UHGV virus genome: UHGV-0198360
DNA from: a virus
DNA: 37,260 nt
Strand: one strand, 5' to 3'
The notes under the pieces: generated by a model
Seen by the model: the letters and a program-made list of their open reading frames with translations, nothing else
Database searches by the model: none
Told to the model about the DNA's origin: nothing
Shown here: positions 5,212 to 35,672 of the stretch, piece by piece
Layout of the letters: each line of letters begins with the position of its first letter
Numbering within the stretch: position 1 is the stretch's first letter
Program-made: the position numbers and the translations under genes

Positions 5212-5217
5212 GCTTCC

Positions 5218-9598: not shown

Positions 9599-9608
9599 GC
9601 TGTCCTCC

Positions 9609-9635
9609 AGGTAAAAAAAAGCCCCGCAAAGCGAG
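9609..9635 (-). terminator. Candidate intrinsic terminator downstream of the zinc-ribbon moron gene
   Basis: Hairpin GCCTCGC-TTT-GCGGGGC followed by T8 on the minus strand (plus strand aaaaaaaagccccgcaaagcgaggc). Confidence 0.5.
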
Positions 9636-9672
9636 GCATTTTAATGCTTATTAAATAGTGTAAATATTACTT

Positions 9673-10392
9673 TTATTTTTTCTTTGCTTGCTCTGGATAA
9701 TCTGAAACATCAAAATCGAACCCCTGTTCGCCAGATTGATAAAATGTCACTCCAATAGTGATTTTTTTATTGCTCTTGATATATTTTTCGAAAGACTGTG
9801 GGTTATCAAGAAAAATCATATCTGATCTTCCAGACGCCTCACTACTTGCAGTCCAGATTTTTACCTTTCCGTTATCGCCCTTCGTTCTTATTGAGCAATC
9901 TGAGTAACCACATACAATCTGACCTTTAGATATCACGACATAGGCATCAGTACCTTGTTTTCTTTTGCGGAAAACCAAGTTGAGTACAGAACCACCATCA
10001 ACGTTGTATGGGAATGGGAAATTAACATGGTTTTTCGATGTATTATAAAAAATCTCCCCAACCTCACCAGTAACGCTATCTTTCGTGGGTTGGTTATGCC
10101 AGTTAATAACTGTAACTGGTTCTTTTTTTACCTCTACTTCTTTTACGACATCATTTTTCAACTTATCAGTGCTTACCTGAGTGCTACCCACTGTTTGGCT
10201 AGGTGCTTCTTTTTTATTGCTTACTTTGCCAATAAACAAAAGAAGGATAAGAACCCCTACAAAAATAAAAAACACCATCATACATCCCGATGGGCCTTTG
10301 TTTTTTTTTGCTATGGGAGCTCCGCACTTTGGACATGATGCGGCCTTATCAGATACCTGTTCTCCACACTCTTTGCATTTAATTAAAGCCAT
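9673..10392 (-). CDS. Zinc-ribbon membrane protein (239 aa), moron between tail chaperone and tape measure
   Basis: N-terminal CxxC...CxxC (CKECGEQVSDKAASCPKCG), then a hydrophobic helix (MMVFFIFVGVLILLLFIG), then a Lys-rich soluble domain; strong SD AAGGAGATCAAGGA; AT-rich relative to flanks. Confidence 0.6.
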   Translation of the reverse strand: MALIKCKECGEQVSDKAASCPKCGAPIAKKNKGPSGCMMVFFIFVGVLILLLFIGKVSNKKEAPSQTVGSTQVSTDKLKNDVVKEVEVKKEPVTVINWHNQPTKDSVTGEVGEIFYNTSKNHVNFPFPYNVDGGSVLNLVFRKRKQGTDAYVVISKGQIVCGYSDCSIRTKGDNGKVKIWTASSEASGRSDMIFLDNPQSFEKYIKSNKKITIGVTFYQSGEQGFDFDVSDYPEQAKKK

Positions 10393-10454
10393 TCCTTGAT
10401 CTCCTTGTTTTTAGATAGGGTAGCAAGGAAAGCGTTTCTAATAAATTCTACTTT

Positions 10455-11143
10455 TCAATTCCACGTCCTCATCGCTTCCTGCAGGCTGATTGGTTCGTTA
10501 GCGGCGACGCGCTCTACCGCTGCTATGTGAGGGGCGAAATCAGTAATGCTGAATGCCGGTGTGTTTGAACCGCGATTAACATTAGCCAGCACAGAAGAAA
10601 TCAACGCTGCTCCCCATTCCGTCCGCATCATAGGGTTCAGGTTTCCGTATTTTTGACGATACTGAACCCACTGCTGAAACTCAAGAAAGCTAAGGCGTTC
10701 CTGCGCTTCTGAAATGGTACGTCCACCAATCCCGTTAAGGACTAGTTCGCACCAGATTTCGTCTTCTGCGCTGAGTCCGTCTTTCCCAGATCGTTAACTT
10801 CCTGAATAGCCACCAGCAAAGCCACTGTAAGATTGCCATCCAGTGCGCCACGTTCCGGATCAGCCTCGCCGGTCACATCAGCAACGGTAAACACCTGATG
10901 CCCGTCTTCATCACAGATTGATGCTGCAATACGACCAGCAACGCCATCAATCTTGCCAAGACCGGCGAGAACATCAGACGTGGCAGTGTGATAACCCAGA
11001 GGGCGAACATAAGTTATGGCAATATGTTCTTCCCCGTCAGCACCTTTCCATTTAATTTCTTTCTCAACAGGACGACCAGTAAAAGCACCTGTTTTTTTCA
11101 GCGTATCAAGAGTCAGTTTCATGTAGTTTTCCGGTATAAACAT
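10455..11143 (-). CDS. Tail assembly chaperone GT fusion, made by programmed -1 frameshift at GGGAAAG (10781-10787)
   Basis: After the slippery site the -1 frame stays open for about 110 codons (DGLSAEDEIWCELVLNGIGGRTISEAQERL...RTWN*), ending at TGA 10455-10457; same arrangement as lambda G/GT. Confidence 0.6.
10742..11143 (-). CDS. Tail assembly chaperone (gpG-like)
   Basis: ORF between major tail and tape measure genes; contains slippery heptamer G_GGA_AAG near its 3' end; start taken at the first ATG (track start 11146 is a TTG). Confidence 0.7.
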   Translation of the reverse strand: MFIPENYMKLTLDTLKKTGAFTGRPVEKEIKWKGADGEEHIAITYVRPLGYHTATSDVLAGLGKIDGVAGRIAASICDEDGHQVFTVADVTGEADPERGALDGNLTVALLVAIQEVNDLGKTDSAQKTKSGAN

Positions 11144-11174: not shown

Positions 11175-11666
11175 TTAACTGCCTGGCTGTTCTTTAGGAA
11201 TCCATGCCCCCTGGCCAGAGCGCTGGATGGTAGCAGACGTCTGCACGACGGTATTACCCTGGAAGTCAAACGGGAAGTCGGAAACATAACCTTTGAACAC
11301 GTACCAGGTACGATCTGAAGGTAGAATCAGTCCATCAACAGCATCAGGGGAACTCCCCGTTGTTGGTTTAGACTCGCCATCGGACCATCCGATCGCAAAT
11401 GTCACATCACTCTGATCATTTGATTCAGCCATATTACTGAGCATCAGATGGCTGGCATTCTGTGGATCAGCGTTAAGCGTGGCCGTCGCCTGCCCCGGTG
11501 TACGCAGACCCTTTTTATATTTTCGGGTGTTGCGTTCACTGAGGCACGTATCATCAATCTGATCTGCAGGGCTGCCGCCTGGTGAAAATGCCGTAATACA
11601 TTCGATTTCGCTCACGACACCATTCGCGAGCACAAAAAGTTGAGTGCCTTGAGTCACTACTGACAT
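11175..11666 (-). CDS. Major tail (tube) protein (163 aa)
   Basis: ORF track ORF trimmed to the ATG with SD GGAGA ([13 protein letters not shown]...); the longer track ORF would overlap the upstream gene and a terminator hairpin. Confidence 0.7.
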
Positions 11667-13597: not shown

Positions 13598-14809
13598 TCA
13601 GCTACCTGCGCCGGTGCTGAAGGAGCCATACACGAACGCTTCAGGGCGTTTGACGGCCAGCGCCAGACGTTCCTCGCAACGGATGGTGATCATGTTTTTC
13701 TCGAAATCGTCGGCGTTCTCCGTGGAGATAACGACATTCGCATCTTCGCGGTCGAAGATTTGCGCGCCAGCGTTGAAAGCACCAGTCAAAAATTTACCCT
13801 GGAAGGCTGCCGCTTCAGTGGCAACAACCGGCAGGCCCCACAGCGTCGGCCCAGTCAGCGCTGCAGGGTTAGCCAGGATGTAGCGGCCCAGGCTGTCTTT
13901 TGTCAGTTCGATCCGCGCCCAGTCGATGAAGTGAAGAACGTGACCGGATGCAGGGAAGCGCGCCAGTTGCGCCTGCAGCATTGCCAGACGCAGATCGTCA
14001 ATACTGCTCTGCTGTTCAACAGTAAACGCCGGGTTAAACGCTGACGCCTGAGGAACAATGCCATGCAGATGTACACCGGTACCGTCACCGAAGAGAATTT
14101 CCTGCTCTTCCGCGTACTTCAGTCCGTAGCGCATTTCGGCATCAACGGTTGACTGCAGCTGTGCGAAGTCATCCAGGATCTGCTTTGAGGCTTTGAACAG
14201 GTGAGCGATGGTGCTGACGCCCGTGATTTTTGGCGTAAACTCAATATCGCTGTATGGTTTCTGAGTATTTTCAGGAACCACCTTCGCTTTGTTGGTAAAG
14301 CCTGTCTGTTGCACCCAGAAAATAGCCGGGGAGGAAGTGCGGCCAGGCGCAATCAGATCGCGGATGAACAGGCGCTGTTTCGGTGCTGTATCAATGCCCG
14401 GAATTCGCTGGGGTTCGACGACGCCATCAGGCACATCCGCAGAAGTCAGTGCGGCCTTAACCGGGATACTGATACGTTTGCCACCTTCCACGCCGGAGGC
14501 AAAGGTTTTCAGAGCTTCAGCAGAGATGACCTGCTGACCGATTGATTCCACAACATGCTTCGCGTTTGCCAGCGGCATCTGGGCGACATGTTGCTCCAGT
14601 TCGCCCATCGCTGCCTTCAGCGTTTTTTCTGCTTCGCGCAGGGCGTTGAACTCAGAAGCCATTTTATCGACGGCTGCCTTTGTTTCTTCTGACAACTTGC
14701 CTGACTTCTGCGCCTCCTTCACTGCTTCTTCTGCTTTCGCGTTGAACTTGCCGGTTGCCTCTTCAATGCTGGCCGTGACTTTTTTCAGAATATCGTTTAC
14801 TTCAGACAT
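13598..14809 (-). CDS. Major capsid protein, HK97 family (403 aa)
   Basis: ORF track; size, position after prohead protease and N-terminal coiled-coil delta-domain-like region (KAEEAVKEAQKSGKLSEETKAAVDKM...). Confidence 0.85.
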   Translation of the reverse strand: MSEVNDILKKVTASIEEATGKFNAKAEEAVKEAQKSGKLSEETKAAVDKMASEFNALREAEKTLKAAMGELEQHVAQMPLANAKHVVESIGQQVISAEALKTFASGVEGGKRISIPVKAALTSADVPDGVVEPQRIPGIDTAPKQRLFIRDLIAPGRTSSPAIFWVQQTGFTNKAKVVPENTQKPYSDIEFTPKITGVSTIAHLFKASKQILDDFAQLQSTVDAEMRYGLKYAEEQEILFGDGTGVHLHGIVPQASAFNPAFTVEQQSSIDDLRLAMLQAQLARFPASGHVLHFIDWARIELTKDSLGRYILANPAALTGPTLWGLPVVATEAAAFQGKFLTGAFNAGAQIFDREDANVVISTENADDFEKNMITIRCEERLALAVKRPEAFVYGSFSTGAGS

Positions 14810-19218: not shown

Positions 19219-19375
19219 AATCGAAAACTCCTATTAATCATCGAATGGGGGACCCCATAAAAAAGTTTTCTAACCTGCGGCGATGTGAAAAGAGGTTAGG
19301 CGGCGGTCCTTTGGCGCGTCGTTCCTGAACTTTCAACCCGCCCTCCCCCTCTGTCGTTGCAAGTGAGAATTTATA
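19219..19375. other. Candidate cos / packaging-site region
   Basis: Non-coding gap between HNH and terminase small subunit genes containing GC-rich GGCGGCGGTCCT, similar to the lambda cohesive-end sequence GGGCGGCGACCT; inference only. Confidence 0.3.
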
Positions 19376-19726
19376 TCATTTGAGCCTATCGACCGCTGTC
19401 TTTGCCCTGTGGCAGGGCTTGCAGAGGCTTTCGAGGTTGGACAGGTCATCGGTCCCCCCATTTGCTTTGGCGGTGATGTGGTCCACCGTCTCAGCGGGTG
19501 TATACCTTCCATTTCGCAGGCATTCCTGACAAAGGTGTTTATCTCTGTCGAGAACGATTGGGCGCAGCCTGTCCCACTTGCTGCCATAACCTCGCTGATG
19601 CCTGCTCTGTCCTCGCTGATGCTGCTGCCAGCCTTCGTTAAGGTGCTTGGGACAATAGCCTGAGCGGTCAGTGGTTGTGCCAGGGCAGCCACGCTTGCGG
19701 CATGCTCTCGGTATTAACGCAGGCAT
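19376..19726 (-). CDS. HNH endonuclease, packaging-associated (116 aa from ATG)
   Basis: ORF track; C-terminal HNH motif (VDHITAKANGGTDDLSNLESLCKPCH); start moved to the ATG in a TGATG overlap with upstream stop, SD GGAGG 8 nt upstream. Confidence 0.75.
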   Translation of the reverse strand: MPALIPRACRKRGCPGTTTDRSGYCPKHLNEGWQQHQRGQSRHQRGYGSKWDRLRPIVLDRDKHLCQECLRNGRYTPAETVDHITAKANGGTDDLSNLESLCKPCHRAKTAVDRLK

Positions 19727-20316
19727 CAGGCTAACCTCCACGCCCGGCGGCGTTCTGTTCGTGGAGCTGAGTCAGGGTGACGCTCAACCGGTTCGCCGTC
19801 TGCATGGTCCACCAGCGACCAGCAGGGATAGACGACAACGCCACCATAAGCATCGCCCACGGCATAATCGGCAGGCTTACTGCAGTCCCATTGAGACAGC
19901 ACACGGCTGATGCTTTGAGGCGGTATGCTGTAGCACACGCCATGTATCAGGCGTTGCAGCATAATGAAGTCAGACCTCACCTTATCCGCATTAATCAGGC
20001 GTTCAGCTATCTGCATTTGGTATTGCGGTGGCCGCCCAGTGCCCAGATAAAAACTAAGCATGTCGCCAGGGAAACGAGCCAGCCAGCCCGTAATCTTGTC
20101 TCTGAATCCACGTACAGGCAGCGCGTCGTCTTCCAGCACCACTACCCGGCAAGGTTGCTCAGCAGCCCATTCGATAGCGCGCCGGTGATTCCAGTTCGCA
20201 CCGTGATTCCCTTCATCGATAAGCAGGTGTGCGCCAAGTTCGCCAGCCAGCAATGCAGCTGAGGCATAGCGGGAATGGTGACCAATCACAACATACTTCA
20301 CTTGTGTTTCCACCAT
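19726..20316 (-). CDS. Hypothetical protein, possible small glycosyltransferase-like enzyme (196 aa)
   Basis: ORF track; strong SD AAAGGAGA; beta-strand then acidic VVVLEDD motif reminiscent of DxD glycosyltransferases; assignment tentative. Confidence 0.4.
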   Translation of the reverse strand: MVETQVKYVVIGHHSRYASAALLAGELGAHLLIDEGNHGANWNHRRAIEWAAEQPCRVVVLEDDALPVRGFRDKITGWLARFPGDMLSFYLGTGRPPQYQMQIAERLINADKVRSDFIMLQRLIHGVCYSIPPQSISRVLSQWDCSKPADYAVGDAYGGVVVYPCWSLVDHADGEPVERHPDSAPRTERRRAWRLA

Positions 20317-21755
20317 GCGGTCTCCTTTCCGAAGCCATCCGTTTTAAAGATGGTATGCACCAGAGGGCCGGTAACGATTCGATTACCGAATGACTTTGCA
20401 GCCATCCCGAAAGCGCCCATGTCCACCAGCGTGGCGGGAGCTGCTTCCATCTTCCAGAAGCGGTGGCTTTCAATAAGGTAATGCTGACGGATGATCCGGT
20501 GGGCGAACTCCATTACATCTTCACGGTAGCCACCAATCAGGCCAGCATTAAGCAGTTGCTCATCCCGGTGCAGTTCGAAGAACTCGCTATAAGCTTTGCC
20601 GTGGTGATTGTCCTTCATCCATTCGTCAAAGTAGGTTTTGTGCTCGGAGCCAACGTAAATTTTACCCGGCGCCATCTCTGCCCAAGGCTCACGCAGCATT
20701 TCAACGTCTGTCCCGTCAGTACACCAGACAAGATGGTATTCAGGGTGGGCACGAAGATACTGATAGATGTGAAGCCAGCGAGCAAAGTATGGGCTCATGC
20801 CCAACGGCGGGACTTCAAACAGACCGGCGCCAGTTGGCGACTCTTTTAATTCGTCAGCCAGGACAATCGGCAGCGCGCCGGATATTGAATCTGCCCAAGC
20901 CTGAAGAGCCTGCGGGTCGGGTTTCATCTTCCTGCCTCGCTGTGGGTCTGGCTGGCTTGTGAGCAGCGTCGTAATCACTAGATTTGGATTTCTGCTGTAC
21001 GAGGCAAAGCCTGTATAACCGCTGTCGCGTCGAGCGTTGAAGATGCCAACGTTTCTTTTTACCAGTGCCTCTCGGTCAGGCCGTGGTATTGAGCGCACGC
21101 CCTCTTCGTACTCGTCCATTGAGTGAATCAGCTTTTCAGAGCCAACTACATCAGCGAACGCCCACGACGTTAAACCAGCGTTGTGAATCCGAAGCGCCAG
21201 ATCGGGATGCTCGTACATGCCGCGACCGTATACCGGATCGAATCCGCCAACCTTCTTGATGGCGCTGCGGTGGTAGTAAAGCATCACCCCGCGCTGACCA
21301 GTGTAAGCAACATGCTTATCATCACGGTACAGCTCCGCCATGTCGTTCAGCTTATTGCGACCAGCCAGATCCAGAAACTGGTAAGCCAGGTGCGGCTCTG
21401 GTGATTCGATGTAGGGAAGATGCCAGTTATCGGCGATGGGCCAGGCATCATCATCCCATAAAAACAGATGCTCGCACCCGACATCCATCAGGGCTGACAG
21501 GCTGGCGTTCTTCGAGGCAACAATGCCGAGTGATGTTTCATGGCGAAGCAGTTGCACGCCGTCGGGTGCTATCGCTGCAGGTTTTGAACCATCATCGACA
21601 ACCACCAGCAGCGCACCGGCTGGCAGATGCTTCTGGTGCTGCTCAACAGCACGCTTTAAAACGTCCGCCCGGTTGTGGGTGGTAATCGCAATGCCAATCC
21701 GTGACGCTGAAGCACAGGCAGGCAAATACGGGACACCATCAATAGTGACCTGCAT
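20298..21755 (-). CDS. Glycosyltransferase family 2-like protein with extra C-terminal domain (485 aa)
   Basis: ORF track; N-terminal GT-A-like motifs (GIAITTHNRADVL, VVVDDGS, LWDDDAW); SD GGAGA before ATG. Confidence 0.55.
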   Translation of the reverse strand: MQVTIDGVPYLPACASASRIGIAITTHNRADVLKRAVEQHQKHLPAGALLVVVDDGSKPAAIAPDGVQLLRHETSLGIVASKNASLSALMDVGCEHLFLWDDDAWPIADNWHLPYIESPEPHLAYQFLDLAGRNKLNDMAELYRDDKHVAYTGQRGVMLYYHRSAIKKVGGFDPVYGRGMYEHPDLALRIHNAGLTSWAFADVVGSEKLIHSMDEYEEGVRSIPRPDREALVKRNVGIFNARRDSGYTGFASYSRNPNLVITTLLTSQPDPQRGRKMKPDPQALQAWADSISGALPIVLADELKESPTGAGLFEVPPLGMSPYFARWLHIYQYLRAHPEYHLVWCTDGTDVEMLREPWAEMAPGKIYVGSEHKTYFDEWMKDNHHGKAYSEFFELHRDEQLLNAGLIGGYREDVMEFAHRIIRQHYLIESHRFWKMEAAPATLVDMGAFGMAAKSFGNRIVTGPLVHTIFKTDGFGKETAWWKHK

Positions 21756-21772: not shown

Positions 21773-22000
21773 TTATTGACGCTTAATGGTGACCTTCCCG
21801 TAAAGCGACCGCCGTTTCACTTCGCCGTTCTCTGCCGTCATATACCCGCGCTCATCGGGTACAGCGGCAATCACCTCGCCTTTTTCATCATCAGCAGTGA
21901 AAACATGCTTAACCTCTACACCGTCGAGATAAACGGTGTATCGTTCCTGAGCGAGATTAATTTTTCTGCCGGGATCGTCATCTAATACAGTGAGACGCAT
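21773..22000 (-). CDS. Hypothetical protein (75 aa)
   Basis: Track ORF trimmed to internal ATG (MRLTVLDDDPGRKINLAQERY...) preceded by SD GGAGGA; avoids overlap with upstream gene. Confidence 0.5.
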   Translation of the reverse strand: MRLTVLDDDPGRKINLAQERYTVYLDGVEVKHVFTADDEKGEVIAAVPDERGYMTAENGEVKRRSLYGKVTIKRQ

Positions 22001-22019: not shown

Positions 22020-22253
22020 TTAAGTGAAAGAGATGCCAAAACTAACCAGGACGGTTTTCTTTTCCTCAATCCGGCGATTAAGTTCAGCCACTGCATGTGG
22101 GCGAATAGCATCAACAAAGGCTTTATCCTGATAGGTAGACTGAATTGTCACACCAAGCCCATCACCACTTTCCAGTATGCCTTTCTGTCGTTGTAGCTCT
22201 TTTATCCCGTTGTTGATGTAATATGCTTCGGTCAGATTTTCGACATTCATCAT
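22020..22253 (-). CDS. Hypothetical protein (77 aa)
   Basis: ORF track; start ATG overlaps Rz stop (ATGA). Confidence 0.45.
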
Positions 22254-22783
22254 TCAACCCTTTTGTTATTCGACTCTCTTACCGAGTCGTAAACACGCTC
22301 ACACGTCATTCCAGCGTTGTAGCGGTCGTCAGCGATTCCAGCATATCGTTTAGCCTCTTCTGCAAGGCGTCCGAGCATGTTGGCAAGCAATCCTGCGTTG
22401 GCTCCGCCTGTTTTGCTTCTGACGGCAGCGGCAAGATCTGAGGTGTGCTTTGCTGCGTCCAGGCGGGCGGCAAGCTTTGTTGCTTCGGTACGCAACTGGC
22501 TAACAATGGCAGACAGGCCAGCAGCAGTGGCAGCAGATTTAGCGGCTTGTGCTTGTGCATCTTTAACAGCCTCATCACGGGCAATAATTCGCCCTTGTTC
22601 AATCATGCGGGCGGCGGTCTGGGCGTTCGCTTCCTGTGAAGATTCCACGCTATTGCGGTCAGCCCACTTCTTTTGCCAGCCCCGCTCACTCCAGACATTC
22701 CCGGCAAGAAACGCGCCAGCTAACATCAGCAAAACAATGATTGTATTCCACCGCGCCTTAACAAAAGCAAAGACCGCTGTCAT
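22250..22783 (-). CDS. Rz-like i-spanin (177 aa)
   Basis: ORF track; N-terminal transmembrane helix ([14 protein letters not shown]), Ala/Gln-rich coiled-coil periplasmic domain; immediately downstream of endolysin. Confidence 0.75.
22306..22560 (-). CDS. Rz1-like o-spanin, embedded in the +1 frame of Rz
   Basis: Embedded ORF with lipobox LLASC followed by a Pro-rich sequence; start taken at the internal Met of the track ORF ([23 protein letters not shown]...). Confidence 0.6.
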
Positions 22784-23397
22784 ACCAGCAACGCCGCCCG
22801 CGCTTTGTTATAACGACTATTTCTGTCAGCCAGCCCGTTCTGGCCACCGTTGATGATCTGCGTGACACGAACAACATCACCTGAATACATAAGGCAACCA
22901 CGTAAGGTGAAGTACCATGCCGCCGAACGAGCCGCATGTCGCTCTTGCGTCAGAAGTTCTGGCGTACTGACAAGGTCAAGCTTCAGCGCCAAACCGCATT
23001 TGGTGTAGTTCTCGCGGCCGGTGATTTGAAGCAGGCCACGACCGCGATATTTCCAGCCATCACCCGGGCTGTTATTTCCCATGCGGTCACCATAAACCAG
23101 ATTGGCTATTTGCGGCTGGTGGGCCACTTGCTTACCATCTACTCGCCCCAGCATTTCACACTGATACGGTGTCAGGCGTTTACCAAAGGTTTTCTTTAGC
23201 CCGTCTACCGAGTAGTTGAAGCTCTCGACCAGCGAGGTAAAACCAGCAGATTCATGCCCAATTTGTGCAATGAACATAGCCAGATCGTTTACTGCTGTGA
23301 TTCCAAACTCTTTCATTGCCGCATCAATGTGCGGAAACCAGCGTGCAGAAAGCCCGGCGCTGATACCAGCCGCCTGCTGAAATTGTTGTTGGTTCAT
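22780..23397 (-). CDS. Endolysin, glycoside hydrolase family 19 (chitinase-like) type (205 aa)
   Basis: ORF track; motif [12 protein letters not shown] and overall pattern typical of GH19-type phage lysins; overlaps Rz start. Confidence 0.7.
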
Positions 23398-23406
23398 GGG
23401 GATCCT

Positions 23407-23742
23407 TTACTTGGCGTCGCCACCAAAGCGAACATTGAAAACGCGTGTGGCCACCGAGCGCACCTGCTCAACGCCAACGAACCCCAGCGCGCCACCGATA
23501 GCAATGGAAAGTGACTGCGGAAGACTGAAATACTCGAGTGCGGAAACAGCCGTCAGTGTCATGGCGCCACACATCAACCCTTCCAGCACCATCTTTTTCC
23601 AGCCGCCGCCACCATATGCAATCCGCAGTACAGCCATCGCTACCGATAAAAGAACTGCGCCAATTGGCGTATCACCGCGCCACCAGCTATGAAGTAACTC
23701 AATTAACTCCGTCCAGGAGTGAGGGTCGTTGTGCATTTTCAT
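23407..23742 (-). CDS. Holin, lambda S-like with MKM dual-start motif (111 aa)
   Basis: ORF track; N-terminus MKMHND parallels lambda S Met1-Lys2-Met3; hydrophobic segments; SD GGAGGTG; directly upstream of endolysin. Confidence 0.7.
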   Translation of the reverse strand: MKMHNDPHSWTELIELLHSWWRGDTPIGAVLLSVAMAVLRIAYGGGGWKKMVLEGLMCGAMTLTAVSALEYFSLPQSLSIAIGGALGFVGVEQVRSVATRVFNVRFGGDAK

Positions 23743-24339: not shown

Positions 24340-25170
24340 TTACGCGATATTTATCACATCTTCACTTTTAGTCACCCGGTTCAGTTGAGAACTTGAATAA
24401 CTCTCCTCCTGGAAACATTTGGTCACCAAGATTTCATAGAATGGTTTCCAGCTATAACGCCACGTCCGGTCTGGCAGACTGGGCAACTCGGAAAAAACAC
24501 CGCGATAGGCAACCGATGATTTTGGCCTGCTGTATCCCCGACCTTCACAGCGCTTACATTCTTTGTAAACCGGTACGCCCTGCAGTTCTGTCGCTTTACG
24601 GTCAATAGTCTTACCTGTGCCGCCGCACTGGCATCGCTTACTTAACTTTCCGGTGCCATGGCAGCGGGAACATAACGTATGATCAGTGTCAGTTACATCG
24701 CGCTTAACCTCAAAGTCAGATGGTGACTGTCTCAGGTCTTTTGCCCATTGTGGCAATCGCATTGTGTAATGGCTTTTAGTCACGGTTTTAGTGGTTGTAA
24801 GCAACCCTTTACCACTACATTTTGGGCATGCCACACAATCAGCTGCTGATGAGGAATAATCGTTATAGGCAAACCGGGCAAGGATACGCATGCAGAGGGG
24901 AAACTTTTTCCCTGATGCTTTACGAATAGCCATGGGAGCATGCTCTTTCGCGTACTCCGTTAGCCAGGCAATTGACGCCTCCCTGTCCTGGCTGCTGATA
25001 CAAGCTTTACCCAGAAACATTGCCAGCCCGATGCCCGCATCAGCCTGAGTCATCCCCAGTGCCGCCATTACATCAGTCACAGTAAGTTGCTCACTTGCTG
25101 TCGCTCTGCTGGTATCTGAGATGTGCATGCCTTTAGGCGCAAAAAACTTTAAAACATTGTCCAGATTCAT
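24340..25170 (-). CDS. Late antiterminator Q-like protein with four CxxCxGxG zinc-finger repeats
   Basis: ORF trimmed to ATG at 25170 (SD GGAGA); repeats CPKCSGKG, CSRCHGTG, CQCGGTG, CKRCEGRG; position immediately upstream of late promoter/terminator and lysis genes. Confidence 0.6.
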   Translation of the reverse strand: MNLDNVLKFFAPKGMHISDTSRATASEQLTVTDVMAALGMTQADAGIGLAMFLGKACISSQDREASIAWLTEYAKEHAPMAIRKASGKKFPLCMRILARFAYNDYSSSAADCVACPKCSGKGLLTTTKTVTKSHYTMRLPQWAKDLRQSPSDFEVKRDVTDTDHTLCSRCHGTGKLSKRCQCGGTGKTIDRKATELQGVPVYKECKRCEGRGYSRPKSSVAYRGVFSELPSLPDRTWRYSWKPFYEILVTKCFQEESYSSSQLNRVTKSEDVINIA

Positions 25171-25186
25171 ACGGTCTCCATACTTC

Positions 25187-26146
25187 TTAAGCTGTCGCAA
25201 TTACGCCGATCGCCAGCGCCCGATCCATAAAACGCAGTAGCAGCTCAAGCTGCGTACCATGCTTTTGCTCGAATGCCGGTACATCGGCGTGTAACTCATC
25301 GTGGCACTCTCTGCACAGAGGGATCACGAAGAGGTCATGGGCTTTTGTTGCTGTACCACCCATACCGTGCCCTACGATATGGTGCGGATCATCTGCTGGC
25401 CGTCGGCAACACTCACAGGGTTGTGTTTTAACCCAGCGGGTGTACGTCTCATTTATCCAGCGGCGTCGCTTTGGCCTGAGCATGAAAGACTCTGGCGACT
25501 CTGGATCAACAGAGAGCGTGAGGATCTTCTTCGCCTTCTCCTGAACGAGTCTGGTTGCTGACGAGGAAGGCACTATGTCGCTTTCCCTCATGACAGAACG
25601 GATCTTCTCATCCGGAAGGCGCAGCCCTTTGTGCGCAACGCTTTCCGGAATAATATCAGCCAGGTCGTTTCTGACCATCCACCAGCACAGTTCCGGAAGC
25701 GTCAGGATATGCGACTCGGGAAAACCAGAATCACGCCGAATGACTTCCAGAATCCAGGATACCAGGTTTCCGGCCGCTATACCTGCAAGCTGTTCGGTAT
25801 GCTGCCCCGACAAAGTGTGATCGCAATGCCAGCACAGGCGAATACTTCCTGGTGGGTGCCGCATTGTTGTGAAGTTCTTGTCGTGCCACGATGAATGTGG
25901 CCACTGGCATTCAAACCGATTACTCAACCATTGCTCAAGGGAAGAAATCCCACCGGCACGCTGAATAACCCTCTCATTCTCGAAGACCTGACGCATTACC
26001 GGATCATCAGTCAGCGGCTGAATGGCTGCCGGAACAGCCCCGGTACTGAATGACGCCATTTCTTCTGGTTCAGGCTCGAGCAGAACGCGACCACGCATGA
26101 AGAGGTGCATCAGTTCCGCACCAGGACGGAACAACACAATCCCCAT
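25187..26146 (-). CDS. DUF968-like protein with C-terminal HNH-like Cys/His motif (start uncertain)
   Basis: ORF track (342 aa from GTG at 26215); C-terminal CECCRRPADDPHHIV...CRECHDELH; several in-frame Met candidates and none has a strong SD. Confidence 0.5.
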   Translation of the reverse strand: MGIVLFRPGAELMHLFMRGRVLLEPEPEEMASFSTGAVPAAIQPLTDDPVMRQVFENERVIQRAGGISSLEQWLSNRFECQWPHSSWHDKNFTTMRHPPGSIRLCWHCDHTLSGQHTEQLAGIAAGNLVSWILEVIRRDSGFPESHILTLPELCWWMVRNDLADIIPESVAHKGLRLPDEKIRSVMRESDIVPSSSATRLVQEKAKKILTLSVDPESPESFMLRPKRRRWINETYTRWVKTQPCECCRRPADDPHHIVGHGMGGTATKAHDLFVIPLCRECHDELHADVPAFEQKHGTQLELLLRFMDRALAIGVIATA

Positions 26147-26178
26147 ACGATGGGCGATCTCGGGGGTAAGCAGAGCTC

Positions 26179-26862
26179 TCACGCGACCTGCCCCCTGGCA
26201 ATGTGTTCTGCCCACAGTCCACCAATCCAGCGCACGCCTTTCGCCGTGAAACGTGCCTGGCTGAATGCATGATTTGAGGTTACGGATGTGCCGGTTTTCA
26301 CTTCAAAACGGCCCGCATCAATATGCTGATGCCGTGGGGTCATCGTTCCGCCAAGGCGATACATAATGTCGTTCTCAAGGAGGAATAACCGCAGATCTGG
26401 CTCTTTGGCCTTAAGCAGTTTTGCCACCTGGCGGAATGACATTGACCCACTGGCTGTACAGTACCGATCAACAAACGCTACCTTCGGCGCCGCGGCAGCC
26501 AGTTCGTTAGTCAACTGCTGTTTTTGTTCTGCAAGGTCAGCTGCAAGACGTAGGGCTTCAGAGAATGATTGAGGAATCGTCTGCTGCTGTGCCTGCTCAA
26601 GCTCCTGCCAGCGATCAACCAGACGCGCGGTAAACTCCGGCGACAGCTGCGCGACAACGATATAACTGTCCCGCTTCCCTATCAGATAAACCGATACCGA
26701 CTGATTGAGGTGATTTTTAACTTCCCCCATTGGGGGGAGTTCAATAACACCGCGCTCTGCCAGGCGTTCAATGGACCGTTTAACATGGTCATGTCGTGAT
26801 TCCACCAGCTCAGCAATATCGCTGCTGGACATGGTTAATGCTGTTGTTGCTAACTGGCTCAT
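26179..26862 (-). CDS. Rha-family phage regulatory protein / antirepressor-like (227 aa)
   Basis: ORF trimmed to ATG with SD GGAGAAAAGT; N-terminus MSSSDIAELVESRHDHVKRSIERL matches the Rha-family pattern. Confidence 0.6.
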   Translation of the reverse strand: MSQLATTALTMSSSDIAELVESRHDHVKRSIERLAERGVIELPPMGEVKNHLNQSVSVYLIGKRDSYIVVAQLSPEFTARLVDRWQELEQAQQQTIPQSFSEALRLAADLAEQKQQLTNELAAAAPKVAFVDRYCTASGSMSFRQVAKLLKAKEPDLRLFLLENDIMYRLGGTMTPRHQHIDAGRFEVKTGTSVTSNHAFSQARFTAKGVRWIGGLWAEHIARGQVA

Positions 26863-26875
26863 ACTTTTCTCCATA

Positions 26876-27262
26876 TCAGGCGGCTGCACCCGCCGGTTCA
26901 TATCTGCTGATCGTTATCTCTACCCGACCTTTCGGCACTACGGGTCCCCATTCCACCAGCATGCGCTTAATCTGGCTGTCGTCTTCCCAGACACCCGCAT
27001 GCGTCAGCGCGTCAAACAGGGCTTTGTTGTAATTATCGATATCCCGGCGGCGCGCATCCGGCGGGTACAGAGTGATTTCTACCGCTGCCAGTTCAGTCGA
27101 TGGCTTCGGGAGACGTCGTAATTGCTCAATGATCGCCACGCAGGCAGCGCTCTGGTATTTACGACCATCAGCGCTAATGAGGTGACGACCGGCCAGCGGC
27201 CCCTTATTAGGGGCGCGCCAGTACGTGTTCACGCTCGGAGGGAACGGGAGCACAAGTTTCAT
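26876..27262 (-). CDS. rusA: Holliday junction resolvase RusA (128 aa)
   Basis: ORF trimmed to ATG (SD AGGAGGTGGC, ATGA overlap with methyltransferase stop); MKLVLPFPPSVNTYW and Asp-rich catalytic region typical of RusA. Confidence 0.8.
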   Translation of the reverse strand: MKLVLPFPPSVNTYWRAPNKGPLAGRHLISADGRKYQSAACVAIIEQLRRLPKPSTELAAVEITLYPPDARRRDIDNYNKALFDALTHAGVWEDDSQIKRMLVEWGPVVPKGRVEITISRYEPAGAAA

Positions 27263-29076
27263 GCCACCTCCTGCTGTTGCACTGCACACAGTTCCGGAAG
27301 ATTTGCCTCCACCAGCGCCCTGGCGAATGGTGGTGGTACCGCATTACCGCAGCGGGCTACCTGCTTATCTTTTGCATAGAGATTTCCACGGTAGTCCTGA
27401 TCAATAACGTAACCATCCGGGAAGCCCTGCGCTTTGTAGAGTTCATGCGGCTGCAACATGCGCATTCCGATATCAACGATCTGGTATTTAACCCCATCGA
27501 TCGTTACCAGCCATTCATCGTCACTTTCCCCGCAATACGTCTCGAGAAATGTGCGTACCTCACCCACGTGTTGGCCACCAGCGGTGATTGTTGGCATTGG
27601 CACATCAAGGCGTTGCCCGTCGCGGCATGTTCCACGCAGTTTCACCAGATGAGAGGCAACTACCGCATGATGGTCGACAGTGGTCACTGAATGCGCGGGT
27701 TCATCCATACTGACACCCGGCCCCGTATAGTTACCGCCGTAGTGTTTCGCCAGGAACGCGCCCACCAATTGTGATTTACCGCCACCACCAGCTGTAATTG
27801 TGGCGCTCGGTTCGTCTGCCCGGTGGCCGACGCTGGCCCCAAACTGGCGGGCTATCACTGGCGCAACAAGACAGGCGCGGGATTGCTTCAGAATGGTATG
27901 AGCAGGTTTATCCAGCGGGCGCGGTTTAGCCTGGTATTCACTACCACCATTACCCGCCAGAAATGGTGTTAGTGCAGCCTCAACAATCCCGAGAGCATGC
28001 CCATTCCCACCCGGACGTTTTGATGTGCCAGCGGTTACCGTCGGGACAGGTTCGGTAACGGGCTGCCCGGTTGCGCCAGTGCGGAATTTTGTCAGATGTG
28101 GAACAGCTAACGCGTAACCGTGGGTTTTAGTAATAGTTTGCAAAGGCTCGTCCAGCTTCTGACCGCGGAAACAGTCGTAACTCGTTTTGGTGCTGGTGTG
28201 ATTGCACTTCACGATAAACGGCGACGCACTTTCGATAACAAAGCGCTGTATGCCGCGCGCGATCCGCTTCAGAGTGTTCTCCGCCAGCGGTTTTTTGCGG
28301 TCGAAGATGGACAGGGCCGGAACATTCCAGTCGATACATTCCGCAGCGGTACGCCATGGCATCAGCCTGCCACTTTGCACCTCCAGCGACTTAGGATCCC
28401 CATGGCTAACAGCAGGCCACTGGATTGGGCAACCATCGCAACGCATAACCATGAAGAAGCGTTTGCGGATCGTCGGCGCGCCGTAATCACACGCGCGTAG
28501 TTCGCGATAATCAACATCATATCCGAGCCCATCCACCAGCTTTTGCGCCTGCTCGCTACCTCTTTCGATAGACAGAAACTCACAAACCTCAGCCAGTGCC
28601 GGGTGATCAGCAGGAATGCCAGTGGACAGCATGCCGACAAATGCATTGAATGTTTCGCCAGTGCGGGCAGGATCCGGACGCATTTCATCGGCCAGCAGCG
28701 GTCCCCACGTTTTGAACTCTTCCACGTTCTCCAGCATCATCACGCGCGGTCGCTTTGCCAGTGCCCAACGCAGAACAATCCAGGCCAGACCGCGTATCTC
28801 TTTTTTCACTGGCTTTGCGCCTTTTGCCTTCGAGAAGTGTCGGCAGTCCGGGCTAAACCATGCCAGGCCGACAGGATTACCGCCGGTGGCAGCTACCGGA
28901 TCCACGTCAAAAACGGATTCACAATAATGCAGTGTGTCCGGGTGGTTCGTCTTGTGCATCGCAATGGCGTTTTCGTCGTGGTTGATCGCAATATCCACGC
29001 TGCGCCCGATCGCCAGTTCAATACCCGTTGATGCGCCACCGCCACCAGCAAAGTTATCAACAATAATCTCACGCAT
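27259..29076 (-). CDS. DNA cytosine-5 methyltransferase (605 aa)
   Basis: ORF track; motif I DNFAGGGG, PC motif region SPDCRHFS, ENV motif MLENVEEF. Confidence 0.8.
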   Translation of the reverse strand: MREIIVDNFAGGGGASTGIELAIGRSVDIAINHDENAIAMHKTNHPDTLHYCESVFDVDPVAATGGNPVGLAWFSPDCRHFSKAKGAKPVKKEIRGLAWIVLRWALAKRPRVMMLENVEEFKTWGPLLADEMRPDPARTGETFNAFVGMLSTGIPADHPALAEVCEFLSIERGSEQAQKLVDGLGYDVDYRELRACDYGAPTIRKRFFMVMRCDGCPIQWPAVSHGDPKSLEVQSGRLMPWRTAAECIDWNVPALSIFDRKKPLAENTLKRIARGIQRFVIESASPFIVKCNHTSTKTSYDCFRGQKLDEPLQTITKTHGYALAVPHLTKFRTGATGQPVTEPVPTVTAGTSKRPGGNGHALGIVEAALTPFLAGNGGSEYQAKPRPLDKPAHTILKQSRACLVAPVIARQFGASVGHRADEPSATITAGGGGKSQLVGAFLAKHYGGNYTGPGVSMDEPAHSVTTVDHHAVVASHLVKLRGTCRDGQRLDVPMPTITAGGQHVGEVRTFLETYCGESDDEWLVTIDGVKYQIVDIGMRMLQPHELYKAQGFPDGYVIDQDYRGNLYAKDKQVARCGNAVPPPFARALVEANLPELCAVQQQEVA

Positions 29077-30391
29077 GGGTTACCCCCTGCATGCTGCCGA
29101 CAAGACCACGCGCAATTGTGATGATTTCGCTGGTGGCCGTTCGTTCCAGCCAGAGTTGATTGATGTTGGCTTTCAGCTTGTTCTGCTGTGATTCATCCAG
29201 CATGTCAGCGCCGTCTACCTGGTCGAATACAATTCCAACCTCCAGCGGCCAGATACGGGACTCGGGAAGCGGATCCGATACTGGTTTAGCTTTCTCACGG
29301 ATGTGCATGCGGATCTGGCGAATATTGGACCAACTGGAAACATCCAGGCTTCCCATAGCTGCAATGAAATCAGTACTGTTCATGCCATATTCACCAGATG
29401 CTTCGAGGGCAACAGTACGAATACGTTCCGACATATCCAGGCGCGCAGCAGCGTCATCGAATTCAATCGACAACAGCCACTCATCCACACCGAACAAAAT
29501 ACTCTCACGAATAAGCAGCTTCGCTTTGTCGATCGTTAATGGTGATACCTGAGTGAATTCCGGTGCTTCGACAGAATCCGCCGCCCAGGTATGCCCAAAC
29601 TTCGATTCACTGAATGTGTATTCTTCTTTATCGCCGAACGCAGCTCTAACGCATGCCCACGCCTCGACACCGCTGATATCAAAAATATCTTTCTGGGTAA
29701 GTGGCAACTCTGCTTCTGGCTTGTCAGCTACAGATGGTATGGCAGTTGCAGGTTGAGACTTGCTGGCAGCAAATTGCGCCAAAGTCATAAACGCCCGCCC
29801 TTTTGCCTCCAGTTCAGTACGGTTGATATAGCTGAACCGCTCACCACGCCATGAGTTATCGAATACAGCTATGGCACCGGCAAAAAACGCGCTGGTGGGC
29901 TTCTGTTTTTCGTCAGCAGGTACAAACCACACTGGCAGATCGAACCCAATGCGCCCGCGAATGAATACAATGTGATCGGCATCTTCCGGCCACCACGTTT
30001 CACTTGGCGCGGCTTTTATCAGGAATACATAGCGACCGCCCTTCTCGCGCTGGGCTGCTGCGTACTTCATGATGTGCGTCATACCAGTGATCGCCTGTTT
30101 CTCGTGGTACTGCGAACGGCTATACGGTGGGTTGCCATAACCTGCACCACCCAGTTCTGCCAGACGTTCAGACCAGTCCTGGGTCAGCGCGTTATCTTCG
30201 GCGGTGTACCATGCCGGGCATTTCGCGTTGTCGTCGTCAGCAAACAAGTCCAGAACTAATGGGCCAAATAACGCGTTGATCCCCCAGAAAAGCAGATCAG
30301 GTGTCCTCCACTGATCTCCAACTTCTTTCAATTCGTGAGCTGGTTTACTGCGCAGTTCTGCCAGCGCCTGGCAATATTTATTTGGCATCAT
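29069..30391 (-). CDS. Phage Dam-like N6-adenine methyltransferase domain fused to a ~250-aa domain of unknown function (440 aa)
   Basis: ORF track; NPPY motif (GYGNPPYSRS) in N-terminal third; C-terminal part unrecognised; ATGA overlap with upstream replication gene. Confidence 0.6.
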   Translation of the reverse strand: MMPNKYCQALAELRSKPAHELKEVGDQWRTPDLLFWGINALFGPLVLDLFADDDNAKCPAWYTAEDNALTQDWSERLAELGGAGYGNPPYSRSQYHEKQAITGMTHIMKYAAAQREKGGRYVFLIKAAPSETWWPEDADHIVFIRGRIGFDLPVWFVPADEKQKPTSAFFAGAIAVFDNSWRGERFSYINRTELEAKGRAFMTLAQFAASKSQPATAIPSVADKPEAELPLTQKDIFDISGVEAWACVRAAFGDKEEYTFSESKFGHTWAADSVEAPEFTQVSPLTIDKAKLLIRESILFGVDEWLLSIEFDDAAARLDMSERIRTVALEASGEYGMNSTDFIAAMGSLDVSSWSNIRQIRMHIREKAKPVSDPLPESRIWPLEVGIVFDQVDGADMLDESQQNKLKANINQLWLERTATSEIITIARGLVGSMQGVTHA

Positions 30392-34154: not shown

Positions 34155-34382
34155 ATGTTCTACCTCGGTACCGCCCTTTTTACGCAACAGAAAAGGGCAT
34201 CACCGGGCGACGGGCTCATAACCCAATCCACCCGGGCAAAAAGAAAGCGGTATCTGCAAGCCGCCGACCAATGCAGGTGCCCTTCTCTGTTGTGTATGGA
34301 GAAAGTTCGGCGGTGGCAGCCGCCACAACTTCGTGTATGGACTAAAACCTTGTGCAGAGGAAAGTTAAATGAAATTACCTAA
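34155..34382 (+). CDS. Possible small basic protein (75 aa) upstream of rdgC
   Basis: ORF track; SD GGGGGA 8 nt before ATG; stop overlaps rdgC start; composition somewhat atypical. Confidence 0.3.
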   Translation: MFYLGTALFTQQKRASPGDGLITQSTRAKRKRYLQAADQCRCPSLLCMEKVRRWQPPQLRVWTKTLCRGKLNEIT

Positions 34383-35286
34383 GTTCCGTAACGCAATCGT
34401 GTACCGCGCCACACTACCTGGCATTGAAGCAATTGAAGGCCATCTTCTCGAACTCCCCTATTCTGAGATAGGTGAGACTGAATTGTCGCGAACATCTTTT
34501 GTGCCTAATCCAATCACCGGCGAACTGGTTACCCCTATTACTGGCGGTTACGCCATAGTTGTACGTCGCGATCAGAAAATTATTCCGCAGCATGTGCTTA
34601 TGAAAGAAGCCACGGCACGTATTCAAAATATTGAGAACATGTCCGGGCATAAATTAAAACGTGCCGAGCGTTTAGCCATTATTGATAGTGTTCTGGCGGA
34701 GTTATGCAAAAAAGCATTTGTGAAGTCGACGCTGATCCTGGCGCTGTATAGCACTGATGAAAAATTACTGGTGATTAACACGACCAACAAGCAAATCGCC
34801 AGCATGGTGTGCGCAATGCTGATTAAGGTTGTCGGTTCAGTGAAAACAGAAACAATCAACATTAGTGATATCAAGAATGGACTGACTACACGCCTGAAGA
34901 ACTACATCAATGGTGCAGCCAATGCATTCGAAGGATTCACTGTCGGGAATTATATTCAGCTATCACGCTACGCAGATCAAAAGGAAGTTATTCGCTACTC
35001 AGCTGAGCATGAGTCAATTCAAAGCGAACTGGCCGATAGCCTTAGTAGTAGTTTCACTGCTGATAAAATGGAGTTATCCGGTTGCGGTGTGACCTTCATT
35101 CTGACCGAAAATTTCCATTTTTCGCGCATCAATACCCAATCTCAGACATTTAATGATGAAGATGACAAAGCATTCCAGTGGCGTCATCAGGCAGGCGCTG
35201 ACCTTTTCCAATTCAGCAAGGTAGTTAATTTGATGTGTGACCTTCTTTCATACAAAGAAGAACAGCCACAAAAACCAGCAGCATAA
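34369..35286 (+). CDS. rdgC: Recombination-associated protein RdgC-like (305 aa)
   Basis: ORF track; SD GAGGAAA; size (~303 aa) and N-terminal pattern (MKLPKFRNAIVYRA...) matching RdgC-type proteins. Confidence 0.6.
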   Translation: MKLPKFRNAIVYRATLPGIEAIEGHLLELPYSEIGETELSRTSFVPNPITGELVTPITGGYAIVVRRDQKIIPQHVLMKEATARIQNIENMSGHKLKRAERLAIIDSVLAELCKKAFVKSTLILALYSTDEKLLVINTTNKQIASMVCAMLIKVVGSVKTETINISDIKNGLTTRLKNYINGAANAFEGFTVGNYIQLSRYADQKEVIRYSAEHESIQSELADSLSSSFTADKMELSGCGVTFILTENFHFSRINTQSQTFNDEDDKAFQWRHQAGADLFQFSKVVNLMCDLLSYKEEQPQKPAA

Positions 35287-35365: not shown

Positions 35366-35620
35366 ATGAATCACCTCGAATTTATTGAGAAGAACGTCAG
35401 GGAAATCCTTATTAAACAAGGCTTTTCCTCTTCAGTAGCGCAGGGGGGGGCGTGGCAAGCGCTTGATTTATATAAGCGCATGTCACAAGCCAGTAAAAAG
35501 GGTGCAATTTTTGATGACGTGATGAGGCATGCGAAAGCATGGGCAGATAAACAGGTTTCGAAAACTGAAGTCACGAAAAGTAAACGCAATCAACCTAAAA
35601 ACCAAGGTGGCCTGTTTTAA
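35366..35620 (+). CDS. Hypothetical protein (84 aa)
   Basis: ORF track; strong SD GGAGGTTAA. Confidence 0.5.
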   Translation: MNHLEFIEKNVREILIKQGFSSSVAQGGAWQALDLYKRMSQASKKGAIFDDVMRHAKAWADKQVSKTEVTKSKRNQPKNQGGLF

Positions 35621-35672
35621 ATATTCAGGCCAAGAAATTTGCGCGGTGCAGCGCGCCAATATGGAGAAAACC

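Follow-up and report, generated by a model that had tools for sequence, protein, structure and literature searches.

Two adjacent glycosyltransferase (GT) genes in virus genome UHGV-0198360, a stretch of 37,260 nucleotides hereafter called the window, probably encode enzymes that O-glycosylate the C-terminal serine of the phage's own capsid and tail-tube subunits. The larger enzyme, GT-L, is encoded at positions 20298 to 21755 and the smaller one, GT-S, at 19726 to 20316, both on the minus strand. Two findings make a glycosylated phage particle probable: both enzymes are homologs of those with which mycobacteriophages add sugars to the head and tail of their particles, and a C-terminal Gly-Ser like that of the mycobacteriophages is present on the head and tail-tube proteins. 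The window is a lambdoid, HK97-like (Hendrixvirinae-type) prophage with its genes from about 1 to 32200 on the minus strand, and its best protein matches come from Citrobacter portucalensis (protein P0001, 99% identical; at locus L097, GT-L is 94% and the tail-tube protein 100% identical).

Relation to mycobacteriophage glycosyltransferases

Both proteins matched PHROG families annotated as sugar transferases, GT-L end to end with phrog_1579 'glycosyltransferase' (E 8e-226) and GT-S with phrog_854 'glucosyltransferase' (E 1e-70). RefSeq phage records already label these genes 'glycosyltransferase' or 'glucosyltransferase', and the NCBI name for GT-L is 'glycosyltransferase family 2 protein'. 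In a tblastn search of 50,697 phage genomes, GT-S matched 719 phage records (662 Mycobacterium, 21 Gordonia, and about 30 from enterobacterial hosts). GT-L matched 610 records, 568 of them Mycobacterium, and 383 matches covered at least 80% of the protein at 42 to 44% identity. Both enzymes thus belong to families found mainly in actinobacteriophages.

GT-S was 34% identical to Che8 gp110 over 192 aa (E 2e-28) and aligned over its whole length with Rita gp103 and Corndog gp38, including the motifs N-H-R, 'VVLEDDA-P', 'S-YLG', and 'SLVDH-D'. GT-L was 43 to 44% identical, over its full length, to the ~478-aa Cluster F glycosyltransferases Rita gp101, Fruitloop gp99, and PMC gp100, with 43.5% identity to Rita gp101 over aa 3 to 485. 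PMC12363180, which cites Freeman et al. 2023 (Cell Host Microbe 31:1216), identifies Che8 gp110 and Corndog gp38 as the two glycosyltransferases that are required to glycosylate the capsid. The Rita capsid has also been reported as glycosylated (PMC11256854; the evidence is cited only from a genome announcement and a poster). According to PMC12619734, citing Freeman 2023, mycobacteriophage glycans are located at the C-termini of capsid and tail-tube subunits, and PMC11256854 and PMC12363180 describe these glycans as shielding virions from antibodies.

Gene order is conserved across two phyla. The order in Rita is gp101 (GT), gp102 (70 aa), gp103 (GT), gp104 (HNH), and the genome end, and in Che8 it is gp108 to gp110 (GTs), gp111, gp112 (HNH), and the genome end. 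The order in the window is GT-L, GT-S, HNH, a gap, and terS, so that the sequence of large GT, small GT, HNH, and genome end is the one seen in Rita. The Rita pair (gp101, 478 aa; gp103, 207 aa) offers the closest architecture, in that a two-domain large GT and a small gp110-type GT stand ahead of HNH, beyond which the genome ends. Rita differs in having the 70-aa open reading frame (ORF) between its two GT genes, which overlap by 19 nt in the window, and in structural proteins that are unrelated in sequence. In Che8 the GTs also lie at the right genome end and are followed by HNH, with one small ORF (gp111) in between, but Che8 gp108 (GT2 plus methyltransferase) and gp109 (GT2) showed no homology to GT-L, and the cassette in the window has no methyltransferase domain. 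Corndog GTs lie among the head genes, unlike those of the window.

Homologs of both enzymes were also found in unannotated ~299-kb jumbo phages of Serratia/Klebsiella. These encode a full-length relative of GT-L (57% identity; KpZh_1, L005 5001 to 6455) and a relative of GT-S (44% identity; KpSz_1, 254926 to 255492).

Domain structure of the two enzymes

GT-L consists of two halves. The N-terminal half (about aa 18 to 245; positions 21021 to 21704, minus strand) is a putative GT2-like GT-A domain with the motifs 'VVVDDGS' and 'LWDDDAWP', whose match to the Pfam GT2 model PF00535 was weak (aa 22 to 109, 18.8 bits, below the cut-off of 23.3). The C-terminal half (aa 250 to 485; positions 20301 to 21008, minus strand) belongs to an uncharacterized family and includes the motifs 'HLVWCTDGTDV' and 'LLNAGLIGG'. 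Each half has conserved acidic residues, D54/D55 and D101/D103 in the first and D347/D350 in the second.

The C-terminal half of GT-L occurs as a domain in its own right. In a full scan of 1.84 billion cluster representatives it had 526 relatives at E of 1e-3 or lower, and about half of the best 150 were standalone proteins of 210 to 235 aa, the rest forming the C-terminal half of 450- to 490-aa proteins. An alignment of 51 sequences contained an invariant Trp, an equally invariant D-x-x-D directly after a hydrophobic strand, 'LLNxGxxGG' with an invariant Gly, and an invariant terminal His-Lys. No match to this family was found in Pfam, NCBIfam, or the PDB, 2 of the 51 sequences had weak GT34 matches (E 0.007), and comparison with the GT-S family by hhalign revealed no relation. 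Its motifs suggest that it is probably a second nucleotide-sugar transferase domain. In a Foldseek search with a model of the whole of GT-L, the best matches were PmHS2 and K4CP, polymerases with two GT-A domains, at a template modeling (TM) score of only about 0.2.

GT-S has a conserved acidic motif, E62-D63-D64, and the 'VVLEDDA-P' of its family is invariant across phyla. No Pfam or NCBIfam model matched GT-S. Its mycobacteriophage homologs did match the Pfam GT25 model PF01755, with 32.3 bits for Che8 gp110, 31.0 for Rita gp103, and 24.5 for Corndog gp38 (cut-off 24), and their match spans the 'N-H-R ... V-L-E-D-D' motif that is common to GT-S. Because it is these homologs and not GT-S that pass the PF01755 cut-off, GT-S can be called GT25-like only by transitivity. 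Known members of GT25/PF01755 include the lipooligosaccharide (LOS) beta-1,4-galactosyltransferases Lic2B, LgtB, and LgtE and the collagen galactosyltransferase COLGALT1; the acceptor proposed for GT-S is a protein C-terminal Ser, not LOS. PDB sequence and profile searches with GT-L, GT-S, the GT-L C-terminal family, and the cross-phylum GT-S alignment gave no match.

Both proteins had been described in an earlier note as glycosyltransferase-like, and the matches to phrog_1579 and phrog_854 together with the mycobacteriophage homology agree with that description. The DxD-like acidic motif that the note saw in the 196-aa protein is the conserved E62-D63-D64, and the C-terminal domain that it could not recognize in the 485-aa protein is equally foreign to Pfam, NCBIfam, and the PDB.

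Neither protein has a membrane segment by hydropathy, the maximum Kyte-Doolittle value over 19 residues being 1.05 for GT-L and 1.00 for GT-S versus 1.81 for the holin of the same phage.

A shared C-terminal ending on capsid and tail-tube proteins

Capsid and tail-tube C-termini were examined because the mycobacteriophage glycans sit at these positions. In the window, the major capsid protein (MCP; 403 aa, 13598 to 14809, minus strand, phrog_10) ends in ...GSFSTGAGS, and the major tail protein that forms the tail tube (MTP; 163 aa from MSVVTQG..., 11175 to 11666, minus strand, phrog_158) ends in ...WIPKEQPGS (tabulated as [10 protein letters not shown]). The predicted glycosylation sites are the terminal serines, at codon 13601 to 13603 in the MCP and codon 11178 to 11180 in the MTP.

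Che8 and Rita share the endings ...VVFNKTGS (MCP) and ...AEQYSDGS (MTP), and Corndog has ...VPLVGS on gp41 (capsid) and ...DIKGDS on gp49 (tail tube). Che8 and Corndog thus share a capsid -GS but differ in the tail tube, which has -GS in the former and -DS in the latter. Terminal serine is common to these proteins, and for this reason we infer that it is the modified residue.

The ending is rare in the window as a whole: of the 230 ORFs of 50 aa or more in its six reading frames, only 3 end in -GS. Two are the MCP and the MTP, and the third, an antisense ORF of 62 aa, is surely spurious. Among named enterobacterial phages, the cassette-bearing HK542, mEp390, and ENT39118 have MCPs ending in ...SSGS and MTPs ending in ...A[SA]GS, versus ...SAGGGA and ...VVTP in mEp235, which has no cassette. 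ECP1 is a further cultured phage that bears the cassette.

Co-occurrence of the ending with the cassette

The association was assessed in 108 related loci. A capsid-centered sample comprised 80 IMG/VR loci with an MCP 85 to 100% identical to that of the window. A cassette-centered sample comprised 28 prophage loci found via GT-S in a collection with one genome per species, most of them from separate enterobacterial species and together from about 20 genera, which include Citrobacter, Kluyvera, Kosakonia, Enterobacter, Superficieibacter, Phytobacter, Dryocola, Atlantibacter, Buttiauxella, Scandinavium, Erwinia, and others.

In the IMG/VR sample, the MCP ended in [G/T/N]S in 45 of 46 loci with the cassette versus 2 of 14 demonstrably lacking it (Fisher p 8e-10), and most MCPs of the latter ended in ...TVPAPAGA. 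The protein in the MTP slot ended in [G/T]S in 42 of 44 loci with the cassette versus 2 of 11 without (Fisher p 4e-7). The loci are related to one another, and both p values therefore overstate how independent they are. In the cassette-centered sample, 20 of 21 identified MCPs and all 21 identified MTPs ended in [G/T/N]S. When the samples were pooled, both proteins ended in [G/T]S in 55 of the 58 cassette-bearing loci in which both were found.

The ending is spread over three MCP families and five MTP families. The MCPs of the cassette-centered sample include a 645-aa protease-MCP fusion family, phrog_617; another protease-MCP fusion, counted as a fourth MCP family, ends in -AS. The fifth MTP family, phrog_584, comes from two loci in which the cassette lies beside the tail genes instead. 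In seven loci the HNH, terS, and terL genes are replaced by versions of 31 to 40% identity, and the cassette stays with a tagged MCP, that is, one bearing the terminal pair. A minority of loci have TS in place of GS. Four of these have TS on both proteins (L079, L107, L109, and L101) versus three that are mixed (L104, L112, and L113), a pairing that hints at co-adaptation of the acceptor with enzyme specificity. The contig of L104 (17.9 kb) is labeled Martelella alba, an alphaproteobacterium, and carries an enterobacterial-type prophage with GT-L 69% and GT-S 71% identical to those of the window; the host label is probably contamination.

The most telling contrasts are those within single MTP families, because the protein family is held fixed. 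The HK97-gp12-type tube domain (92 to 94% identical) ends in ...KGKPENIESGS, for a protein of 147 aa, in cassette-bearing phages (L011, L023, L035, and others). In phages without the cassette, including HK97 itself (L091, 6733 to 7437), the same domain runs into an immunoglobulin (Ig)-like domain of about 90 aa, for a protein of 234 aa. MTPs of the HK022-gp12 type (69% identical to that of the window) end in ...WVPKVVTP in HK022 gp12 and mEp235 gp12, both from phages lacking the cassette, and in ...W[IV]PK(E/A)Q(P/A)GS in most cassette-bearing phages.

The tail tube seems to be decorated in one of two ways, by a -GS tail or by an Ig-like domain. Ig-like domains of lambda gpV and HK97 gp12 are exposed on the outside of the tail. 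The ending stands at the site where relatives bear an external domain and therefore fits a surface-exposed acceptor. Both types of decoration follow directly after the tube domain, but the Ig-like (Big_2-type) domains of HK97 gp12 and lambda gpV are folded, whereas the -GS ending is a tail of 5 to 6 residues predicted to carry a glycan. That the two are functionally equivalent is speculation.

Exceptions and other possible targets

Several observations weigh against glycosylation of the C-terminal serine by these enzymes. The ending alone is not diagnostic, since gp5 of HK97 (L091, 4028 to 5185) and of HK022 (L093, 4028 to 5185) ends in ...GTFSSGS, the same as in cassette-bearing HK542 and mEp390. 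No cassette was found in HK97 or HK022 by tblastn, and a KilA-N gene fills that slot in HK97. Three further loci without the cassette (L012, L028, and L083) keep tagged proteins and have no remnant of cassette DNA. In the other direction, MTPs of the HK022-gp12 type end in ...VPKAAA in L018, which has an intact cassette, and in L021; L081 has the cassette and an untagged MCP; and the lone exception among the 21 MCPs of the cassette-centered sample is the protease-MCP fusion of L114, which ends in ...GAAS. Such loci make the ending neither a strictly necessary nor a sufficient marker of the cassette. On the enzyme side, none of 78 proteins (GT-S and 77 close enterobacterial relatives) matched PF01755, even at E of 1 or lower. 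The proposed enzymatic class of the GT-L C-terminal domain is read from its motifs, and AlphaFold2 models of both proteins, built on alignments of 78 close homologs, were of low confidence (predicted local distance difference test scores of 52.1 and 56.9). Which residue is modified, and what the large GT contributes, is taken from secondary citations, and where we specify the terminal Ser, the secondary source says only 'C-termini'. For enterobacterial phages, glycan attachment, the initiating enzyme, the modified residue, the sugar composition, and the benefit are all predictions from sequence.

Tags can outlive or precede the enzymes in mosaic genomes. The head module of HK97 and HK022 is common to HK542 and mEp390, and gp5 of HK97 and HK022 may be a latent substrate or the cassette may have been lost.

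The same exceptions could mean that the enzymes act on another cytoplasmic target, such as a host protein, a defense component, or a small molecule, and that the endings are a lineage trait of the structural modules. Tagged MCPs without the cassette (HK97, HK022, L012, and L028), a cassette with an untagged MTP (L018), association data that come entirely from related mosaic genomes, and a GT-L C-terminal domain of unknown function would all be compatible with such a target. A lineage trait would hardly appear on proteins that are non-homologous or very distant (three MCP and five MTP families), nor recur in Che8, Rita, and Corndog, where the structural proteins have no sequence relationship to those of the enterobacterial phages. 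Moreover, inside single MTP families it is the C-terminus that changes with cassette status, and the low chance of a -GS end (two of the three in the window being the MCP and MTP) also speaks against coincidence. Another cytoplasmic target is for these reasons unlikely.

The cassette itself varies in ways that bear on whether it is functional. At L021 (about 3209 to 5533) a deletion of ~400 bp runs from the end of GT-L to the start of GT-S, and the MTP is untagged, so the glycosylation system may be decaying there. The cassette junctions are insertion hot spots. Between GT-L and GT-S, 500 to 1300 bp are inserted in about two-thirds of relatives (L014, L015, L020, L022, L023, L027, L029, L053, and others), and in some loci an insert of ~300 bp separates GT-S from HNH. 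What is inserted between GT-L and GT-S differs from locus to locus, with HNH-like ORFs of 177 to 226 aa among the contents; an additional sugar-modifying gene was considered for these inserts and rejected, as they contain no transferases. The deletion in L021 and the hot spot at the GT-L/GT-S junction would be expected if cassettes degenerate readily, and the one in the window could likewise be an inactive remnant. This is very unlikely, given that neither ORF is interrupted or shortened and each has a good ribosome-binding site, that both proteins are 78 to 99% identical to hundreds of intact homologs with invariant catalytic-type acidic motifs, and that the target proteins retain their tags.

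Position in the late operon

Both ORFs were confirmed on the minus strand at the coordinates that the earlier note had given them. GT-L (485 aa) starts with ATG and has GGAG 5 nt upstream, and GT-S (196 aa) starts with ATG and has AAGGAG 5 nt upstream; the 19-nt overlap arises because GT-S begins inside the end of GT-L. At the other end of GT-S, its stop codon and the probable start codon of HNH overlap in a TGATG junction, with GGAGG upstream of HNH. The HNH endonuclease (116 aa from the ATG at the GT-S stop; 19376 to 19726, minus strand; PF01844 E 1.6e-15; phrog_144) is a packaging accessory gene beside the genome end. It is followed by 157 nt of non-coding DNA without an ORF (19219 to 19375) and then by the genes for terS, terL, portal, protease, and MCP. 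By analogy with HK97, Che8, and Rita, whose linear genome ends fall between HNH and terS, cos is probably in this gap. Because of the gap, the translational coupling that had been noted for the cassette extends to HNH but not to the terminase genes.

Directly upstream lies the lysis cassette (22250 to 23742), with holin (23407 to 23742, phrog_126), endolysin (22780 to 23397, phrog_181), and Rz (22250 to 22783, phrog_312), all on the minus strand. Two small ORFs of unknown function (22020 to 22253 and ~21773 to 22000) separate Rz from GT-L; they were considered as members of the cassette and rejected, as they are not kept with it in ENT39118 or E. coli 21AR0133. Further upstream, a Q-like antiterminator gene (24340 to 25200, minus strand, phrog_127, E 2e-91) is followed in order by a promoter-like site (24296 to 24269, minus strand), a terminator-like hairpin (23875 to 23856, minus strand), holin, endolysin, Rz, the two small ORFs, and GT-L. 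The promoter-like site and the hairpin come from a consensus scan, which is not proof of function, and the same scan found no minus-strand promoter-like site between 22300 and 19300. The cassette is by position part of the Q-dependent late transcript, since it lies downstream of the Q gene and has no promoter-like site of its own. This bears out the placement in the late operon between lysis and packaging genes. The label of 'cargo' (moron) is less apt, as the genes lack both a separate promoter and a separate terminator and are apparently tied in function to the structural genes.

This arrangement also bears on modification of the host envelope, in which the enzymes would alter the lipopolysaccharide (LPS) core, O-antigen, or another surface glycan and bring about lysogenic conversion, superinfection exclusion, or protection from re-adsorption to debris. 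The mycobacteriophage homologs of GT-S match a Pfam model named 'LPS biosynthesis protein' (GT25), GT-L carries its NCBI family 2 name, the cassette occurs in prophages of many enterobacteria, and the slot from Rz to the genome end holds varied accessory genes in relatives (e.g., KilA-N in HK97). However, the genes are embedded and overlapped in a late operon, without their own promoter or terminator, instead of being expressed from the prophage. The nearest relatives outside the enterobacteria are from hundreds of mycobacteriophages, whose hosts lack LPS; the enzymes lack a membrane segment; no GtrA/GtrB/GtrC-like partner or flippase was present among the window genes; and the co-occurrence with capsid and tail-tube [G/T]S endings would be left unexplained. 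The GtrABC systems of P22 and Shigella phages are likewise prophage-borne glycosyltransferases of enterobacteria. Gtr proteins are membrane proteins that work with undecaprenyl-linked sugars and O-antigen, are expressed in the lysogen, and are usually encoded near the attachment site. GT-L and GT-S are soluble and belong to the late operon, and no Gtr-like PHROG or Pfam matches were obtained for them. Envelope modification is accordingly a distinctly unlikely role.

Glycosylation of phage DNA at hypermodified bases, as a protection from restriction, would be the classic role of phage glycosyltransferases. The window contains two large and adjacent DNA methyltransferase genes on the minus strand (605 aa, phrog_116/23072, 27259 to 29076; and 440 aa, phrog_111, with a PAPS-reductase/ParB-like N-terminal part, 29069 to 30391), located in the early region beside RusA and replication genes. 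Some phages reach a glycosylatable base by cytosine methylation followed by oxidation, as described in a preprint (Pyle et al.). Against this, the window genes scanned included no hydroxymethylase, TET/5mYOX dioxygenase, or similar base-making enzyme, there was no PDB or Pfam match to T4-type DNA glucosyltransferases, and the homologs for which there is experimental evidence act on proteins. The T4 alpha- and beta-glucosyltransferases and other enzymes that act on 5-hydroxymethylcytosine (5hmC) or 5-hydroxymethyluracil (5hmU) thus differ from the cassette both in sequence and in needing a base-hydroxymethylating pathway, which the scanned genes lack. A DNA target is highly improbable. The earlier note had left DNA, virion, and envelope open as substrates; homology, synteny, and the co-occurring [G/T]S endings favor the virion, and the other two are poorly supported.

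Proposed pathway and comparison with known systems

In the pathway that we favor, modification of the capsid and tail tube would take place late in the lytic cycle, when the Q-dependent late promoter would drive the cassette along with the lysis and structural genes. GT-L and GT-S would act as soluble cytoplasmic enzymes that accumulate alongside the structural proteins. GT-S would recognize a flexible C-terminal ...x-[G/T]-Ser and move the first sugar from a nucleotide sugar to the Ser hydroxyl. It is proposed as the initiator because it alone is found in Che8, Corndog, Rita, and the enterobacterial phages alike and because it is reported as essential in Che8 and Corndog. GT-L, with its GT2-like and second conserved domains, would then extend the glycan with more sugars. 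No genes for sugar-nucleotide synthesis accompany the cassette, so the host nucleotide-sugar pools would have to be the source. The outcome would be an O-linked oligosaccharide on MCP ...STGAGS and MTP ...KEQPGS and a finished particle with hundreds of surface glycans. Candidate benefits are shielding from antibodies, as in mycobacteriophages, and surface adhesion or stability like that attributed to Ig-like domains; the exchange between the ending and Ig-like domains points to a function on the outside of the particle.

Compared with the Che8/Corndog system, the window encodes a GT of the gp110 family (GT-S), has a second GT adjoining it (GT-L), and has -GS endings on both MCP and MTP. The enzymes are in each case phage encoded, soluble, and of the putative GT-A type, and expression together with the structural genes is indicated in the window by gene position. 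The host here is a Gram-negative enterobacterium, and glycosylation, which is demonstrated in the mycobacteriophages, is predicted from genes.

To our knowledge, actinobacteriophages are the only phages in which glycosylation of the virion by the phage's own enzymes has been demonstrated. Freeman et al. 2023 reportedly found few indications of it among phages at large. No report was found in the literature of glycosylation in HK97-like or other enterobacterial phages or in the named cassette-bearing phages. The existence of the glycosyltransferase genes themselves is not new. What seems new is the link to actinophage virion glycosylation, the C-terminal acceptor ending common to capsid and tail tube, and its co-occurrence with the cassette across enterobacterial prophages; literature searches turned up no account of any of the three.

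A broader proposal, which we hold tentatively and consider somewhat short of probable, is that Hendrixvirinae-type phages of Enterobacteriaceae, including the long-studied coliphages HK542 and mEp390, make glycosylated heads and tails by means of a two-gene cassette and a short flexible C-terminal [G/T]-Ser acceptor. It would be able to move between unrelated capsid and tube folds and to trade places with Ig-like domains in evolution, and HK97 gp5 would be a ready-made latent substrate.

If glycosylation of the virion is confirmed, it would reach temperate phages of gut and environmental Enterobacteriaceae, through a cassette present in prophages of about 20 genera. A simple rule, the cassette plus a [G/T]-Ser C-terminus, would then identify modified structural proteins, and tail-tube proteins that lack the Ig-like domain of their close relatives could be explained. 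It would represent a natural cytoplasmic O-glycosylation of proteins on a two-residue C-terminal tag in E. coli-like cells and a tractable E. coli system for the enzymology and ecology of phage glycans, with immune shielding in the gut, adherence to mucus or surfaces, and particle stability as candidate roles. The cassette may also become a compact means of adding sugars to therapeutic phages and to nanoparticles built from capsids.

Other features of the window

A second large protein of the HNH family (342 aa, phrog_96) is encoded at 25187 to 26215 on the minus strand, directly upstream of the Q-like gene and overlapping it. In the early-left region, a plus-strand gene at 35529 to 36212 matched phrog_318 'deoxyribonucleoside 5' monophosphate phosphatase' (E 1e-96) and lies beside a recombination exonuclease gene (34369 to 35286). 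The guanine-plus-cytosine fraction drops to 0.39 to 0.42 at about 8000 to 10500, versus ~0.52 elsewhere. This segment covers the 3' part of the tape-measure gene and a 239-aa ORF (9673 to 10392) whose PHROG matches are all of unknown function, and it may be a recent acquisition.

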